A stretch of 64,000 bases of DNA from a virus (IMGVR_UViG_2524614843_000001:39279-103278); one strand, 5' to 3'; counted from the first letter of the stretch, positions 31,645 through 61,284 are shown. Program-made: numbers and translations. Notes: generated from the sequence alone by a model not told the origin.

Positions 31645-31953
31645 TTAATTGCGCAGAGAAAGATGGCCAAATAGGCCGAGCACCGGCAAGAACACAGTGA
31701 CGGTGACTATGCCGAGTAAGGCACGATATATGCCGTAGCCAAGCAAAGCTGCGCCACCCAAGATTTCACGATGCTGGATAGCGAGCGCAAAGCTCAACAG
31801 GCCTGCGGCCACATTCAAAATGACCAGGCGATACAAAGACTCTGGCAAATAGACCAGGTTGAGAAAAATGCCGATGTGCAAACTGCGCGGCCAATTTGTC
31901 CGATTGCGCTCCCGATAGGACAGGAATCGGATACGAGACACAAATGGGGTCAT
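31645..31953 (-). CDS. Small membrane protein (2-3 TM helices)
   Basis: Hydrophobic stretches; ATGA coupling to dnaQ-like gene. Confidence 0.5.
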   Translation of the reverse strand: MTPFVSRIRFLSYRERNRTNWPRSLHIGIFLNLVYLPESLYRLVILNVAAGLLSFALAIQHREILGGAALLGYGIYRALLGIVTVTVFLPVLGLFGHLSLRN

Positions 31954-32507
31954 ACCTTCTTCTCCAAACGAAATGCACCAAGATCAATGCCCTTAAAGAA
32001 AGCCTGCATCATCACTTCCACGTCATAGAGCGCGGAGTGGGCCTTGCTCGGGTCATAATCCACGTTCAGGGCATAGCAGAGCTCGCCCAAGTTCGGGTTC
32101 TTGCCGGTGGGTGTCGCCCAGCGACCGTTTTCCATCGTGCAGAACACCTCAATGTCCGGCTTGATCGATTGCCCCACACGCAGCAACTCATGCGCGAGGA
32201 AGGGCGCATCGAAGTTGGCGTTGTGGATGATTAGCCAGTCGCAGGCGTTGACGATCTTCCCGATCTTTGGCGCCACATCCTCCCAAACCGGCTTGTCGCG
32301 CAGGTCATCCAGGCTGATGCCATGAACGCGCTGAGCGTCGGCATCAATGTTGCGCATCGGGTTGATGCGCTGGACGAAGTGACCGCGCGCCTTGCGAGTG
32401 TTCGCCACAGGGTCAACGTCATAGAGTAGGGCGGCCACTTCAATGATGCGGTGGCCTTTTTCGTAATCGAGACCGGTGGTTTCGGTATCCAGTCCAGCGA
32501 TGATCAT
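31950..32507 (-). CDS. dnaQ: DnaQ-like 3'-5' exonuclease (DEDDh, Pol III epsilon-like)
   Basis: Exo I GLDTETTG, Exo II HNANFDAPFL, Exo III HSALYDVEV. Confidence 0.8.
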   Translation of the reverse strand: MIIAGLDTETTGLDYEKGHRIIEVAALLYDVDPVANTRKARGHFVQRINPMRNIDADAQRVHGISLDDLRDKPVWEDVAPKIGKIVNACDWLIIHNANFDAPFLAHELLRVGQSIKPDIEVFCTMENGRWATPTGKNPNLGELCYALNVDYDPSKAHSALYDVEVMMQAFFKGIDLGAFRLEKKV

Positions 32508-50458: not shown

Positions 50459-50478
50459 GTCACTGATGACTTACTTTA
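50459..50478 (-). promoter_or_regulatory. Class-A motif copy (GTCActgaTGACTTACTTTA)
   Basis: Upstream of lysozyme. Confidence 0.55.
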
Positions 50479-55122: not shown

Positions 55123-55146
55123 GTCACCTATGACTTACTTACTTAA
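55123..55146 (-). promoter_or_regulatory. Class-A motif copy, extended (GTCAcctaTGACTTACTTACTTAA); supplies TAA stop of SSB gene
   Basis: Best consensus match. Confidence 0.6.
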
Positions 55147-56171: not shown

Positions 56172-56190
56172 GTCACCTGTTACTTATTTT
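56172..56190 (-). promoter_or_regulatory. Class-A motif copy (GTCAcctgTtACTTATTTT); minus strand continues TGACTTATAAT (TATAAT)
   Basis: Motif match. Confidence 0.5.
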
Positions 56191-56758
56191 GTGCGGGCAA
56201 AAACGTATCCCCGTCGATTTCCCGCTGCGCATCTTCCCGCACCTGGGCAGCAGCCATCGCTGCGGAATACGCGCTTGCAGACCCACCCGCGCCACCGGTA
56301 AACGCTAGGTTTCTCTGCATTTCCGTGATCTTCTGGCGAGCCAGAACATCCAGAAGGCTTCGTCGTCCTTGGAAGGTAAAGGCAGACGACTTGATCATTT
56401 CCGCGGCCGTTTCCGCGTCATTGAAGAGCTTGCGCGCCAAGATGACCTTCGCATCGAGGCTCACTTCTGATTCGATGCGCTTGTCGGTCGGCTTCTCGCC
56501 CCGAGCGATGATGCCGGCGCGGATTTCGCGGTAAGCGCGCGCTTCGACCAGTTCGAGGTTGTGCTTTGCGGCTCGGGCGATCTGGTCGCCATCCCTCGCT
56601 AATGAGAAGAAGTAAATGGTGTCGGCGGTGTGTGATGTGATCACATCGTTCAGCCGCACCTCGTCAATGACGGCTCGCGCCTCCATTTCCTTGACCTTGC
56701 CGATCAGCTCGGTGAGCTTTTCGCGCAGGACGGTTTCGAGTGATTTGGGTTCAGACAT
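56180..56758 (-). CDS. Hypothetical protein (192 aa)
   Basis: ORF. Confidence 0.5.
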   Translation of the reverse strand: MSEPKSLETVLREKLTELIGKVKEMEARAVIDEVRLNDVITSHTADTIYFFSLARDGDQIARAAKHNLELVEARAYREIRAGIIARGEKPTDKRIESEVSLDAKVILARKLFNDAETAAEMIKSSAFTFQGRRSLLDVLARQKITEMQRNLAFTGGAGGSASAYSAAMAAAQVREDAQREIDGDTFLPAQNK

Positions 56759-56766
56759 GGCTCTTC

Positions 56767-58002
56767 CTAGTTCACAGCTTCCGCCACACGGCGGAATACT
56801 TCATTGAGCGTGGCTTGCTTGCTGTCATCGAACAGCACTTGACCAGGCGAAATGCCGACGATGATCGTGGCGTTGTACTTGGCCGAGAAAATGGCGGTAC
56901 CAGGCTCGGGCTTGCGCGCATCCGGCAGGAAGTAGCGGGTCGCGGCAGAGCCCAGCGTGACGATCACTGGCGGCGCCAGAATCTCGATCTCCCGCTCGAT
57001 GTACTGCGAGCAGGCGGCGATCTGTGCGTCGGCAAGGAACTTCTCGTCCTTCGGCTTGGGCGACTTCACCAGCGCAGTCCAATACCCGTTATCGAAGGTC
57101 AGATAGTTCACGCCCAGCGCGGTGCGGGTTACATCCTCCATCGAGTCGGTCAGCACCTTGCCATTGCGCTCGTCACGGAAGCTTGGCGCGTCGATCACTG
57201 CCATGAACTTCGGCTGCCGACCGATGCGGGGCGACGGATGCACACCGCCCGCCAGTGAGCAGGCGGTGCATTGCTTGGCGTCGCGCAGAGTGATCATCAG
57301 CTTTTCCTTCACGAACTTGCCGGCTTCGATGTTGCGATCAGCCTTCACCACGCCGGAGATCAGGCCAGGCAACAGCTCGATCTGATCTTTCAGGCGCTCG
57401 TTGTGAAGTGCTGGAAGCTGTGAGGGTTCGATGCCGGCAAAGGCGCCGACACGATCAAGGCAGTCGCGCACTTTGACGTTGACCTTCGACTTGTTCACGC
57501 GCGCCTCGAAGTTCTCTTTCGAGGTGAATGGGCCAGCAGGCAACGCCTCGCATACCAGATTGCCCTTCTTGTCGAACTCTTCGACCTTTGCCGAATTGCG
57601 CGCCTGCACGATCAGCTCTGCAGTGGTGGTCGAGATACCCTTCACGCGATTGAAGGGCATAACCAGCGTGACTTTGCTGCGCGCCACGTCATAGCCGATC
57701 TCGAAGCGGTCAGCGCTGGAGAGGTTCACATCGGGCGGAACCAGCAGCAGACCGGCGTTCTCAGCGTCACGCACCAGACCAGGCAGCTTGTCCTCGTCCA
57801 GAACAGACAGACAGGCAGCGTAGAACTCAGCCGGATAGTTCACTTTCAGCCACATGGACTGATAGCTGATCAGCGAGTAGGCAACGGCATGACTTTTGTT
57901 AAAACCATAGGCGCCGAAGGCCATAATCTGACTCCAGAGAGCCTCTGCGTCCGCTTTGCTCATGCCGTTTTCGAGTACGCGGCTTGATACGATCTTGGCC
58001 AT
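56767..58002 (-). CDS. dnaE: DNA polymerase III alpha (DnaE) C-terminal fragment fused to a degenerate family-4 UDG-like domain
   Basis: GAYGFNKSHAVAYSLISYQ (DnaE fingers hallmark); C-terminal about 180 aa align to family-4 uracil-DNA glycosylase (CTACSL, VIVTLGSAATRYFL) but GEGPG motif is IDAPS and catalytic His replaced. Confidence 0.75.
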   Translation of the reverse strand: MAKIVSSRVLENGMSKADAEALWSQIMAFGAYGFNKSHAVAYSLISYQSMWLKVNYPAEFYAACLSVLDEDKLPGLVRDAENAGLLLVPPDVNLSSADRFEIGYDVARSKVTLVMPFNRVKGISTTTAELIVQARNSAKVEEFDKKGNLVCEALPAGPFTSKENFEARVNKSKVNVKVRDCLDRVGAFAGIEPSQLPALHNERLKDQIELLPGLISGVVKADRNIEAGKFVKEKLMITLRDAKQCTACSLAGGVHPSPRIGRQPKFMAVIDAPSFRDERNGKVLTDSMEDVTRTALGVNYLTFDNGYWTALVKSPKPKDEKFLADAQIAACSQYIEREIEILAPPVIVTLGSAATRYFLPDARKPEPGTAIFSAKYNATIIVGISPGQVLFDDSKQATLNEVFRRVAEAVN

Positions 58003-58004
58003 AG

Positions 58005-58175
58005 TCAGTTACTCCACCAGCCCTCGCGTTCGAGCGTCTCTTTGGCAATCTTGAGTGCTTCGGTGCGGGTCATTGTTGGATTCTCGCGCTGCAGCTGATT
58101 AGCCAATCGGGCTTCTTCCTGAATGACAGCTTCGCTGCGGCGGTTCAGTTTGTTGGTAAAGGTGTCCGTGTTCAT
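58005..58175 (-). CDS. Small ORF (56 aa) lying between the two dnaE pieces
   Basis: AAGGAAA RBS; stop 2 nt before DnaE-C ATG. Confidence 0.4.
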   Translation of the reverse strand: MNTDTFTNKLNRRSEAVIQEEARLANQLQRENPTMTRTEALKIAKETLEREGWWSN

Positions 58176-58235
58176 CGTGCGTTTCCTTTGTTTTCCTGAT
58201 TCTCACTTGGAATACTCGGGTCGCTGCGGGGCGTT

Positions 58236-58254
58236 AGTATGCGCTGACTTACTT
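58236..58254 (-). promoter_or_regulatory. Class-A motif copy, half-site degenerate (GTATgcgcTGACTTACTTT) inside the dnaE split
   Basis: Motif match. Confidence 0.4.
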
Positions 58255-58289
58255 TCAAGAGCAAGACCAAACGCCCGCAGGGCGTCCAG

Positions 58290-60656
58290 TTACAGGGCGA
58301 GCTCAACCCCGCGCGCAATCGCTTCCTCGACAGTCAGCAGTTCATCGCTATCCACCGCCTTGTACCGCGTTGCACGATGGACTGTGAGCGTCCTGCCGTC
58401 ATCGAGCGTGACTTCAATCTGACCGAGTTCAGCGCCGGAAATGAATGACGCGCCAATCTTGGCCATCTTGTCCATATCCTTCTTACCTATGGCCTTGCGG
58501 AGCCCGTCTGCGCCCGCCATCGTGAAGCCGCACAGATCTCGGGCGACCTGCATGACTTCCTCTTGGTACACGATGACGCCATAGGTATCCTTGAGCGCGT
58601 CCTCGCAGAGCGGGTGCGGATAGCTGACCGGCTCCAACCCTTGCTTGCGGGCGACAAACTGATCGAGCAGACCGGAATCCAGCGGGCCAGGACGATAAAG
58701 CGCCGTCGCTGCCGCAATATCCTCGAAGGTCAGCGCCTCGTAGCTCGCCAGATCTTTGAGCAGCTTCATCATGCCGCCCGACTCGAACTGGAACACGCCG
58801 ATGGTCTTGCCTTGCCCGAAGCCCTCCAGCGTGATCGTGTCATCGAGGGGCAGATCGAGCAGATCGGGCGTTTTGCCGTGCCGCTCCTTGATGTAGTCCA
58901 GAACCAGCGAAGTCAGATCGAGCGTGGTCAGCCCGAGAATATCCATCTTCACCAAGCCCATGTCCTCGACGGTGCGCTTGTCCCAATTCGTTGTCGGTTG
59001 GCCAGAGCGCATTTCCACGACCGCGCGCTCGTTGATCGGTACGCCGGCAATCACAATGCCTGCAGCGTGACGACCCAGCGACCGGTTGTGATCTTCCAGC
59101 GCCAGGGAATGCTGCCAGAGCTCCGGATAGCGCTCGGAATAGGTCTTAATTGCCCCGACTTGCTCAGCGGCTTCTGCCATCGGGGCGACCATGCCATGCT
59201 CTTTCGGGTAGAGCTTCGTGCATTCCAGATCGCCATTTGGTACCTCGAACACGCGACCCACATCACGGATTGCAGAGGCGCCGGCCAGCGTCGTGAAGTT
59301 GGAGATGCCCGCCACGTAATCAGCACCGAATTTCTCGGTAATGTGGTTGATGACGAGCTCGCGGCGAGTGGCCTGAAAATCCAAGTCCGCGTCAGGCAAG
59401 TCCAGACGTTCTGGATTGATGAAGCGCTCGAAAATCAGACCGTGCCGGATAGGGTCAACATCCGTGATACCGAGCAGGAAAGCGACCAGAGAACCACCCA
59501 CGGAACCCCGACCTGGCCCGACAGCGACGCCGTTTTGTTTCGCCCAGCGGGTGATGTAGCGCGCCAGCAGGAAGTAGCCGCAGAAGCCCAGCTTGGACAG
59601 CACGCCAAGCTCGTATTTGAGCCGCTCCATGTAATGCGGGAGATCTGCCTTGCTCGGCTTGTAGCCGAAGGAGGAGCCCTCAACCAGACGCTCGACAAAG
59701 GCGCGCTTACATAGCTCAACCAGCGCCAACTCTTCCTTCTCGACGAGTTTGGGTAATGACACTGGCCATTTTGACCAGGTGTAATCACACATACTCTCGA
59801 CAACCGCCATGTTCCTGATTGCACCCTTGAGCCGCTCCATATCAAGCGCCTCATCGAACAGCTTGAGATAGGTCTCGCCAAAGGCTTTGCATTCCGCGGC
59901 GAACTCCGCAGGACTGAGGATGCTCAGGTTGCCGGAGATCTGCGAAGGCGCAATCCGCCAGCCATCCTTCATCTTGTTGTTGCTGCACACAGCCGCGTAC
60001 ACATCGAGGGAGTTACTTTGTGACGGGTCTGCTAGCAGCGCAGGGCGCGTCGCTACGACCGGTATACCCGTTGCGTGGGCATATCCGAGCACATCGCGGC
60101 CAATGCGCGCAAACAGCGGATTATTGACGACAGGAAGCTCAATAAAGAGCGCGTGGGGCTGCGCAGCCCGCAGTTTGTCCAGACGCTCATAAGCTGTCGC
60201 TTGATCGACTTTGTAGAGCGCGCCCAGCAGATCACCAGTCATCACGACCAGACCATCCGGTGCAGACGCGATATGCTCCAGCACCTCGTCGAAACTGAGG
60301 CGCGGGAAGTAGTAGAAGTGGCTTTCCGAGTTAGCGAGGCTCAGCAGCTTGAAGATCGCCTTGAGCCCGCTTTCGTTACGTACCAACAACCGCAAAGTGA
60401 ATGAGCGCGGACGCTTCACCTCTGCAGATTTCTCGGTCGGGTCACACAGCACGACCTCAACTGTCACGCCGATGATTGGCTTGATGCCGGCGTCCTTCGC
60501 TGCAGTCATCAGCGCCGGCATTCCTGAGACGGTCATCTTGTCCGTAATGGCAATGGCCGTCAGTCCCTTCTCGACCGCCTGCGCCACCGCTTTCTTTACT
60601 GATAGCAGTGAGCCGCCAATCGTGAAGTCACTACGCACACCAAGAGCAACTTTCAT
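58290..60656 (-). CDS. dnaE: DNA polymerase III alpha (DnaE) N-terminal fragment (PHP, palm, thumb, part of fingers)
   Basis: 788 aa; PHP domain start MKVALGVRSDF, palm motifs; homology ends about 40 aa before stop. Confidence 0.8.
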   Translation of the reverse strand: MKVALGVRSDFTIGGSLLSVKKAVAQAVEKGLTAIAITDKMTVSGMPALMTAAKDAGIKPIIGVTVEVVLCDPTEKSAEVKRPRSFTLRLLVRNESGLKAIFKLLSLANSESHFYYFPRLSFDEVLEHIASAPDGLVVMTGDLLGALYKVDQATAYERLDKLRAAQPHALFIELPVVNNPLFARIGRDVLGYAHATGIPVVATRPALLADPSQSNSLDVYAAVCSNNKMKDGWRIAPSQISGNLSILSPAEFAAECKAFGETYLKLFDEALDMERLKGAIRNMAVVESMCDYTWSKWPVSLPKLVEKEELALVELCKRAFVERLVEGSSFGYKPSKADLPHYMERLKYELGVLSKLGFCGYFLLARYITRWAKQNGVAVGPGRGSVGGSLVAFLLGITDVDPIRHGLIFERFINPERLDLPDADLDFQATRRELVINHITEKFGADYVAGISNFTTLAGASAIRDVGRVFEVPNGDLECTKLYPKEHGMVAPMAEAAEQVGAIKTYSERYPELWQHSLALEDHNRSLGRHAAGIVIAGVPINERAVVEMRSGQPTTNWDKRTVEDMGLVKMDILGLTTLDLTSLVLDYIKERHGKTPDLLDLPLDDTITLEGFGQGKTIGVFQFESGGMMKLLKDLASYEALTFEDIAAATALYRPGPLDSGLLDQFVARKQGLEPVSYPHPLCEDALKDTYGVIVYQEEVMQVARDLCGFTMAGADGLRKAIGKKDMDKMAKIGASFISGAELGQIEVTLDDGRTLTVHRATRYKAVDSDELLTVEEAIARGVELAL

Positions 60657-61255
60657 CGCAGATAAATCCCATTTTTTTGTTTGATACCGAAGAAACGCAG
60701 CAAGGCACAGGCAATACTTGCACTCGATTTCGCCGAGTTTTCTGTCATGCCCTGCTGAATGAGTGCCTGATTGAGTTCGGCCTGGCGGAAGCCGCCATTG
60801 CCGATCAGTAATGCGCAGGCGATACGCATAAATTTCGGACCTTCACCCTCAAAAGGGTTTTTTGACTGTGACAAGTCACCTATTACGTCAATACCGCGTC
60901 GCAGGATGGCTCGAGCTTCACGCTGAGCCTTGACCGGTAATGAGCTAATCAAGCGCTCTTCCTCAATGGTGAGCTTGTAGTCAAAACGAAGCGGCATCTG
61001 TCCGGCCGCACGAATTTCCGGCACATGCACCGCGCCCAGCTCTCCAGATGACTCAGGCCGCATTGGCGCAAAACCCTCTCTGCGATGCGACTTGTTGGCT
61101 CGATCAATCAACGCTTGGACAGGCGCACCTTCGAGCACAATCTTGCTACCCACCTCTAATGCAATGCCGGCGCATTCAGCCCGCAGAGCGCAGCTTTGAC
61201 AGCGAGCACCCTGCGGGTCATAGGTGACAATCGAACCAAAACAACCTGGCTTCAT
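60653..61255 (-). CDS. Hypothetical protein with N-terminal Cys4 zinc finger
   Basis: CFGS...CQSCALRAEC; ATGA overlap with dnaE. Confidence 0.5.
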   Translation of the reverse strand: MKPGCFGSIVTYDPQGARCQSCALRAECAGIALEVGSKIVLEGAPVQALIDRANKSHRREGFAPMRPESSGELGAVHVPEIRAAGQMPLRFDYKLTIEEERLISSLPVKAQREARAILRRGIDVIGDLSQSKNPFEGEGPKFMRIACALLIGNGGFRQAELNQALIQQGMTENSAKSSASIACALLRFFGIKQKNGIYLR

Positions 61256-61264
61256 TATTACTAG

Positions 61265-61284
61265 CTCACCTATGACTTACTTAC
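61265..61284 (-). promoter_or_regulatory. Class-A motif copy (cTCAcctaTGACTTACTTAC); contains stop codon of AAA+ gene
   Basis: Motif match. Confidence 0.55.

Follow-up and report, generated by a model that had tools for sequence, protein, structure and literature searches.

A two-piece dnaE gene with a probable split-intein vestige at its break in an SSU5-like phage-plasmid of Chitinibacter tainanensis

The element described here is an SSU5-like phage-plasmid from Chitinibacter tainanensis that carries a 'fractured' dnaE gene. The stretch analysed, called the window throughout, comprises 64,000 nucleotides (IMGVR_UViG_2524614843_000001:39279-103278), and the locus of interest lies at positions 56,767 to 60,656. 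Here dnaE, which encodes the alpha subunit of DNA polymerase III (Pol III alpha), is divided into an N-piece and a C-piece with a small gene, ORF56, between them. On either side of the break there probably lies what is left of a DnaE-type split intein, no longer able to splice, and the halves of the polymerase are probably assembled non-covalently through this remnant. The polymerase would thus be made as two polypeptides. Every catalytic element of splicing is missing, so the halves would not be ligated. The remnant would retain the first act of a split intein, which is to capture its partner and co-fold with it into a small beta/alpha module, and through the co-folded module the N- and C-pieces would stay together and form one active polymerase. 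The stretch that separates the pieces would be an ordinary intergenic slot, filled in relatives by an endonuclease or its decayed remains and in the window by ORF56, to which the C-piece would be translationally coupled. The proposed direction of change is from a split intein through loss of splicing to occasional re-fusion. Both this direction and the non-covalent assembly are what we infer from sequence comparison.

The split is real. The original prediction, made from the bare sequence, had described dnaE as two open reading frames (ORFs) with a 56-residue gene between them, and both the ORF list and a second sample bear this out. Three minus-strand ORFs lie exactly at 58290-60656, 58005-58175 and 56767-58002. 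The first, stop codon included, is the N-piece of 788 residues. Its residues 1-745 (58422..60656, minus strand) comprise the PHP domain, the palm with the PDADLD motif, the thumb and most of the fingers, as judged from the ORF list, Pfam and alignment to the continuous DnaE proteins of RHph_N1_15, nickie, SSU5 and ANB28. Residues 746-788 (58293..58421, minus; QIEVTLDDGRTLTVHRATRYKAVDSDELLTVEEAIARGVELAL) form a tail. The C-piece has 411 residues and opens with a head, residues 1-12 (57967..58002, minus; MAKIVSSRVLEN). Residues 13-224 (57331..57966, minus) hold the end of the fingers with the GFNKSH motif and the helix-hairpin-helix or beta-binding region (Pfam HHH_6, the alignment, and positions 766-1171 of PHROG 405), and residues 225-411 (56770..57330, minus) a degenerate family-4 uracil-DNA glycosylase (UDG)-like domain. 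Pfam reports PHP, DNA_pol3_alpha and DNA_pol3_finger in the N-piece, HHH_6 and UDG in the C-piece, and no match in ORF56. The features of Pol III alpha (PHP, palm with catalytic PDADLD, fingers and helix-hairpin-helix, by Pfam and reading of the ORFs) are spread over the two pieces, and with all Pfam domains and the PDADLD motif present the polymerase looks intact. The AlphaFold2 (AF2) model of a relative, P0056, matches the Pol III alpha structures 2hpi, 4iqj and 5fkv at E 1e-16 (Foldseek). From the stop of the N-piece it is 114 nt to ORF56 and 287 nt to the start of the C-piece, whose ATG lies 2 nt past the TGA stop of ORF56 and is preceded by GGTGGAG. The original prediction had named assembly error as a possibility to be excluded. 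ORF56 and the C-piece match exactly two NCBI proteins assigned to Chitinibacter tainanensis, encoded on a ~103-kb contig. Over 10 kb, the Logan assembly of SRR896346 and the window show 100% identity, and a separate sample, SRR29904083, has the same order of N-piece, identical 56-residue ORF and C-piece. Because the same three-gene layout recurs in a second sample, the split is no artefact of assembly.

Alignment of both pieces with continuous DnaE proteins places the break within the fingers domain, 26 residues ahead of the GFNKSH motif. In most continuous relatives there is no module at this point, and …KFVxGxxxxxG runs straight into GMxExxAxxLFxxIExFAGYGFNKSH. The same uninterrupted join is present in 30 of 31 IMG/VR loci. 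The DnaE of SSU5 has a 51-residue in-frame insertion exactly at the window's break point; the tail of the window aligns with the first 40 residues of this insertion and MAKIVSSRVLEN with the last 11 (MAAVRVTGSQP). Because both align within a single insertion, tail and head are the two halves of one module. The stand-alone C-pieces of relatives all start with a conserved head such as MKIKSIKVLNDG, and the tail is conserved in all split relatives read. The module is kept across lineages whose C-pieces are only 38-60% identical. What had been described as a 43-residue non-homologous tail is hence a conserved module that stands in frame in SSU5 DnaE. The C-piece had also been thought to restart ahead of the GFNKSH motif and re-cover a DnaE segment; this does not hold, MAKIVSSRVLEN being homologous to the heads of relatives' C-pieces and to the start of a C-intein. 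Nor is the junction duplicated: the shared 11-nt sequence ATGGCCAAGAT is at chance level, about 20 further 11-mers matching the window by chance just as well.

The affinity of the module emerged from profile searches. A profile of ten tail-plus-head modules (A2) was searched against all PDB sequences with hmmsearch, and the only significant matches were cyanobacterial DnaE split inteins. These were Npu (2keq, 4kl5, 4lx3, 4qfq and 4kl6) and the related 'DnaE intein' 7qil at E 4e-5 to 3e-4, and Ssp (1zd7, 1zde and others) at E about 3e-3. Positions 6-46 of the module align with Npu residues 62-102, up to the natural split point, residue 102 being the end of the 102-residue N-intein. In the fused Npu construct 4kl6 the alignment (residues 63-109) crosses the split point into the C-intein. 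A second, independent comparison was made by hhalign with an intein alignment (A4) built from the complete split intein of locus L098, C-inteins from relatives, and the Npu and Ssp sequences, which agree with the HMMER output over Npu residues 62-102. It gave 94.6% probability and E 7e-8 and placed columns 3-55 of the module on columns 57-111 of the 136 in the intein alignment. The tail corresponds to residues ~56-102 of the N-terminal intein half (IntN), that is, to its C-terminal ~47 residues in the block B or N4 region, and the head to the first beta-strand of the C-terminal half (IntC). The first ~55 intein residues are missing from the module in this alignment. Homology to the central part of the HINT fold (the N4 region and the first C-intein strand) was found by both the PDB profile and hhalign, and the module is by these comparisons a fragment derived from the HINT family, not a functional member of it. 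The earlier statement that no intein blocks are visible must be revised accordingly: tail and first 12 residues of the C-piece form a truncated split-intein remnant, detectable by profile only.

The elements required for splicing are absent from the module throughout. There is no N-terminal Cys or Ser nucleophile (block A), and the tail opens with (Q/F/W)-(I/V)-E-V right after extein GAxxG. The TxxH of block B is not found; its Thr position is usually His (in the window, SSU5 and most relatives), and its His position is variable (A/E/S/M). Blocks F and G, the conserved terminal Asn and a Cys, Ser or Thr at position +1 are all missing, +1 being Gly. After its 11-13 residues the head gives way directly to extein G(M/L)xE. 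At about 55 residues in total, the module is much smaller than any HINT domain known to work. Having no splicing residues and only 55 residues in all, the module is a vestige unable to splice. Fused forms of the SSU5 and P0056 types keep it in frame and thus retain it in the mature protein; splicing is therefore not required.

What the vestige might still do is suggested by the parts that are kept. In the AF2 model of P0056 the fused module is folded as strand-strand-helix-strand with pLDDT 86-92, presumably the order expected for the corresponding part of the HINT fold. Tails are mostly acidic (net charge 0 to -7), and heads are neutral to basic (0 to +4). Natural split inteins show an acidic/basic charge pattern between their halves, which come together through the C-terminal half of IntN and the N-terminal part of IntC. 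The vestige retains these very segments and would therefore act as a clamp. Several observations weigh against this reading of the module. The window module alone, searched against the PDB, matches only the Ssp DnaE intein, at a non-significant E of 1.7, so that significance comes from the profile of ten sequences. Pfam intein models reported no intein family on the isolated module at E up to 10. The insertion point lies 26 residues upstream of the cyanobacterial DnaE intein site and so represents a different intein allele. Among the retrieved proteins there is no complete intein at exactly this dnaE site. Charge complementarity, finally, is weak in several lineages. The top 50 Foldseek matches of the 544-residue P0056 model are Pol III alpha proteins and UDGs, a search in which a 55-residue module cannot surface.

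The split is common. A rarity implied by the original prediction is not borne out: in SSU5-like phage-plasmids dnaE is frequently divided in this way, usually with an HNH homing endonuclease in the gap. A search of 5.8 billion proteins with the C-piece returned many stand-alone C-pieces of 378-425 residues on ~100-kb contigs. The homologous-protein lists contain no hit longer than ~1.7 times the query, with full-length DnaE invisible and split or partial genes over-represented, and the ratio of split to unsplit genes is not derivable from them. PHROG 4335, a family of no assigned function, is the stand-alone C-piece family, which the window's C-piece matches from end to end (E 1e-108), and PHROG 21652 spans the N-piece up to the end of the tail. 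Ten split loci were read, among them L086, L087, L088, L090, L091, L092, L094 and L097 on ~100-kb contigs. Complete N-pieces in split loci have 785-791 residues and end in the conserved tail, a range that leaves aside L091 (cut by the contig end) and L098 (the N-piece of which is itself split).

The gap in these relatives ranges from 25 to 736 nt. A NUMOD4-type HNH_3 endonuclease occupies it in L086, L092, L094 and L097, and a different HNH protein with NUMOD3-like repeats, read by eye, in L090, the window's closest relative at about 55-60% C-piece identity. Two unrelated HNH families sit in the same gap. L088 has an internally deleted endonuclease of 57 residues, L087 a NUMOD3-like remnant recognized by eye, and L091 only 25 nt. 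When IMG/VR was scanned for the pattern, 40 further loci proved to be fused and of the SSU5 type, 10 were split and had a 191-residue endonuclease, and in two near-identical ones (L143 and L144) this endonuclease is cut to 63 residues. Comparison of L143 and L144 with L141, an Acinetobacter-type locus from IMG/VR, provides a direct snapshot of endonuclease decay: an internal deletion turns the 191-residue NUMOD4 endonuclease into a 63-residue ORF. Copies of the Klebsiella-type gap endonuclease with no less than 90% identity are present on at least 240 Klebsiella and Enterobacter plasmids of PLSDB, and in the one Klebsiella region inspected the endonuclease directly follows a dnaE N-piece of 787 residues. 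On an Acinetobacter plasmid the annotation reads dnaE, NUMOD4 endonuclease and 'uracil-DNA glycosylase family protein'. The same misleading name is given to the C-half of the polymerase in RefSeq NZ_CP096743.1 (22251-23516) and in the Chitinibacter protein P0002.

Locus L098 (2092-7552), and likewise L099, has dnaE in three pieces. Piece 1 ends with a complete N-intein (CLTGDS…) and is followed by an HNH gene. Piece 2 starts with a complete C-intein (…IVVHN|SG), ends with a vestigial tail and is followed by a second HNH gene. Piece 3 opens with a head. The complete intein sits at another site, FQF(E)S|GGM. Site 2 of L098, the same as the site of the break in the window, is, as read from its sequence, a fractured-gene arrangement with a decayed intein.

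In the window the gap is occupied differently. A terminator-like hairpin of 11 pairs begins at the stop codon of the N-piece (58266..58290, minus strand; consensus scan and RNA fold). It is followed by AAGTAAGTCA, an exact half-site of a recurrent promoter-like motif, found by motif scan at 58254-58245 (58245..58254, minus), with a degenerate second half. The motif copy that the original prediction placed in the gap thus exists, as this half-site only. The full motif, WAGTAAGTCA-N4-TGA(CATAAT), occurs 16 times in the window against 0.05 expected, 14 times on the coding (minus) strand. Recurrent copies are intergenic, for example at 55124-55140, 61266-61282 and 50460-50476 (all minus). Within the motif lies an inverted repeat, GTCA-N4-TGAC, and its end resembles a -10 box; the motif may be a promoter or operator of the element. 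Similar motifs follow the N-piece stop in L087, L088 and L098, and a promoter function of the gap motif is plausible. Just upstream of dnaE in L087, L088 and L097 lies a gene for a sigma-70-family factor.

ORF56 (58005..58175, minus), 56 residues long and with a Shine-Dalgarno-like AAGGAAA of its own, belongs to a family of small conserved phage proteins of 52-74 residues, with ten cluster representatives at E < 1e-3 and the core EEARxANxLQRxxPxxTRTEALKxAK. A 60% identical homologue, P0242, is encoded outside dnaE, among a group of small genes on a 113-kb contig. ORF56 has no Pfam match and PHROG matches only at E >= 0.025; its conservation marks it as a real gene. When ORF56 and the whole gap were compared by BLASTP and tblastn with the L088 remnant and four gap HNH proteins, no match fell below E ~0.4. 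Descent of ORF56 from a decayed homing endonuclease was rejected on the grounds that it matches no gap HNH and has its own family with a homologue elsewhere. ORF56 looks like cargo that took an endonuclease's place. The earlier view that the window gap holds no homing endonuclease is thereby upheld, ORF56 being unrelated to the HNH enzymes, as is the view that it holds no intron. Rfam reported only noise on 57700-58700 at E up to 10, with E ~7 for the best hit, and the fold of the 290-nt spacer is no more stable than that of shuffled sequences (z = 0.07); a group I or group II intron was rejected on both counts.

The history of the module was traced on a neighbour-joining tree of the C-region (200 bootstraps, ~360 deep-branching columns). 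Module-bearing dnaE genes are never monophyletic on it (0 of 200 bootstraps); the split L098 pairs with the module-less L019 at 100%, and L091 with L005 at 80%. SSU5, which is fused, and L086, which is split and has an endonuclease, share 96% identity in the C-region and carry very different module alleles: their nucleotide sequences are 50-68% identical over the module and 98-100% identical immediately downstream of it. Such a mosaic is compatible with homing of the whole cassette and equally with repeated loss and exchange through recombination. Because fused forms nest among split ones, the fusion is taken, with moderate confidence, to be derived.

A refinement of the split-vestige explanation would make the whole cassette mobile, from the tail, its stop and the promoter through the endonuclease or cargo to the start codon and head. 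The endonuclease would cut intact dnaE and repair would copy the cassette in, so that the gene is fractured but at the same time supplied with an intein-derived 'Velcro'; in the window's copy the endonuclease would have been replaced by ORF56. The lack of monophyly, the pairings of L098 with L019 and of L091 with L005, the divergent modules of the otherwise similar SSU5 and L086, and the two unrelated HNH families in one gap all speak for it. The patchiness could, however, equally well stem from repeated precise loss through recombination with intact alleles, the supporting tree is a simple neighbour-joining tree on ~360 deep-branching columns, and the window's copy has no endonuclease. Mobility of the cassette is accordingly a tentative suggestion. 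It may also be, though we would not assume it, that the unit of tail, gap and head is an unrecognized mobile element, a split intein without splicing whose remnant halves serve as a non-covalent clamp. By this clamp an essential polymerase would tolerate its own division, so that the element would persist and perhaps still spread by endonuclease-driven homing.

The lack of an endonuclease in the window gap and the terminator-like hairpin after the N-piece would suit a pseudogene, that is, a dnaE inactivated by insertion in a decaying cryptic element replicated by the host Pol III. This is very unlikely. Both pieces are full length with domains and catalytic motif intact, the C-piece starts with an ATG behind a Shine-Dalgarno-like sequence and is coupled to ORF56 at a distance of 2 nt, and the same break with its tail and head is kept in very divergent lineages and hundreds of plasmids. 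Less likely still is a joining of the pieces, whether by trans-splicing through a very small intein, by a self-splicing intron or by translational bypass of the 290-nt spacer. The ends are indeed intein-derived, and exact removal of 290 nt would restore the reading frame. The N-junction Cys or Ser, the block-B His, blocks F and G and the conserved terminal Asn are nevertheless wanting, +1 is Gly, and the 55 residues fall short of the size of any working HINT domain known to us. There is also no Rfam intron and no excess structure in the spacer, which encodes a conserved protein and in relatives varies from 25 to 736 nt. The possibility that a sequencing frameshift or chimeric join mimics the split is negligible, given the second sample with the same layout and an identical ORF56, the conserved gene held by the 290 nt of extra sequence, and the same break point in many independent assemblies, complete plasmids included.

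A close counterpart of the locus is found in the fractured genes described by Dassa et al. 2009 (PMC2677866), in which a free-standing homing endonuclease lies between the halves of a split intein. Three metagenomic DnaE loci are among them, and the fractured genes described there keep all six HINT motifs and five active-site residues. As in fractured genes, an essential replication gene is divided here into adjacent same-strand ORFs with intein-derived sequence at the break. In relatives of the window the likeness extends to a free-standing HNH gene with a promoter-like signal in the gap (L086, L090, L092, L094, L097 and L098), and L098 shows the canonical form at a second dnaE site. The differences are that the halves here are truncated to about 43 + 12 residues with all catalytic residues lost, and that the window gap holds an unrelated small gene in place of an endonuclease. 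The Npu and Ssp DnaE split inteins are the best match of the module, reside in the same host protein and break it in the same region, leaving about 400 residues as the C-extein, which begins close to GFNKSH. Unlike the vestige, the cyanobacterial intein is complete and trans-splicing and lies between Y and CFNKSH, 26 residues downstream. Its genes are at separate loci with no endonuclease between them (Dassa et al., PMC2677866).

Persistent breaks in phage replication enzymes offer a further comparison: in each case the break in the enzyme coincides with a homing-endonuclease site, and the two polypeptides are presumed to work in association. The nrdA gene of Aeromonas phage Aeh1 is split by mobE, its halves working non-covalently, as Friedrich et al. 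are said to have found in 2007, and the split gp43 polymerases of T4-related phages reportedly work in the same way (Petrov et al.). We know of no intein-derived sequence at the break in either of these, whereas a conserved intein remnant flanks the break in the phage-plasmid dnaE. Literature on SSU5-like phage-plasmids in connection with inteins, HNH enzymes, split dnaE or a DnaE-UDG fusion yielded no link, which is not proof of absence. A gene fractured at a homing-endonuclease site is thus of a known kind; a conserved non-splicing remnant at a persistent break in a polymerase appears undescribed. Within the larger pattern the window is one ordinary member with an atypical cargo in its gap.

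The fractured genes and split inteins described so far are complete splicing machines, and here the gene stays split without any splicing residue. Conservation of the partner-facing segments across polymerases only 38-60% identical suggests selection for association, not ligation. The arrangement concerns the replicative polymerase of phage-plasmids common in clinical Klebsiella, Enterobacter and Acinetobacter, and automated pipelines hide half of this polymerase under the name 'uracil-DNA glycosylase family protein'. Should the unit of tail, gap and head really be a mobile element that has given up splicing, the fission of a replicative polymerase would have become permanent, with no need of splicing, in a group of phage-plasmids that is large and common in the clinic. 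In that case the remnant would be a natural minimal heterodimerization pair of about 43 + 12 residues, which, coming from the fast-associating part of a DnaE intein, could serve protein engineers.

The UDG-like domain had been recognized in the original prediction as a degenerate C-terminal domain, and rightly so. The C-piece scores 35 bits against the UDG model PF03167 (cut-off 24.3) and matches solved family-4 UDGs by phmmer (4zbx at E 1e-8 and 1ui0 at E 2e-7, with 1vk2 and 1l9g also matched). The AF2 model of P0056, a relative of 35% identity, matches 4zbx with a target TM-score of 0.80 in Foldseek. At motif A, IDAPS aligns with GEAPG/GEGPG (phmmer). In what was taken by eye to be motif B, His-Pro would be expected; the window reads ISP there, and relatives read FNP or INP. 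The CxxC pair (CTAC) and the Cys of AACS align with conserved Cys residues of family-4 UDGs, which are presumably Fe-S ligands; the Cys of VKCRPP is Ser here. The OB fold (PF01336) has no match in the C-piece, and the UDG-like domain stands in place of the OB/tau-binding C-terminus. This end of the protein had been given a special status, which it loses on comparison: the relatives, whether split or continuous, all align over 95-100% of the C-piece, its last 180 residues included. Because every relative covers it, the UDG-like end characterizes the phage family as a whole.

SSU5 is a known phage-plasmid. The neighbours of dnaE in the window, namely an AAA_5/CbbQ_C (CobS-like) ATPase, a 200-residue ORF and a gp32-like single-stranded DNA-binding protein, correspond to those in the replication module of RHEph10/RHph, nickie, ANB28 and SSU5, phages of ~110 kb. 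The Logan copy of the window contig has a 5'-3' exonuclease and RecA downstream as well. The order of AAA_5/CobS-like gene, small ORF, dnaE and, further on, gp32-like protein, 5'-3' exonuclease and RecA is common to the window, SSU5 and the RHEph10-like and nickie-like phages, the continuous DnaE proteins of which have the same architecture, including the UDG-like C-terminal domain. The window differs from RHEph10-like and nickie-like dnaE in that those have neither module nor break, and from SSU5 dnaE in that the module of SSU5 is fused in frame. In related phage-plasmids (L088 8843-10260 and L089 4623-6040) the RecA gene contains an intein with a LAGLIDADG endonuclease, Pfam placing Intein_splicing and LAGLIDADG_2 within RecA_N. 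From the RecA intein together with the homing elements of dnaE it follows that the replication and recombination module of this family is heavily colonized by homing elements.

Apart from dnaE, the window encodes a DnaQ-like 3'-5' exonuclease as a separate gene at 31950..32507 on the minus strand, as had been predicted (Pfam RNase_T, E 1e-27); it is a candidate proofreading subunit. The ORFs on either side of the split gene, 56180-56758 and 60653-61255 (minus), have no Pfam match and fall into unassigned PHROG families, phrog_1069/2058 and phrog_3616, respectively. The position of both beside dnaE is conserved in relatives.

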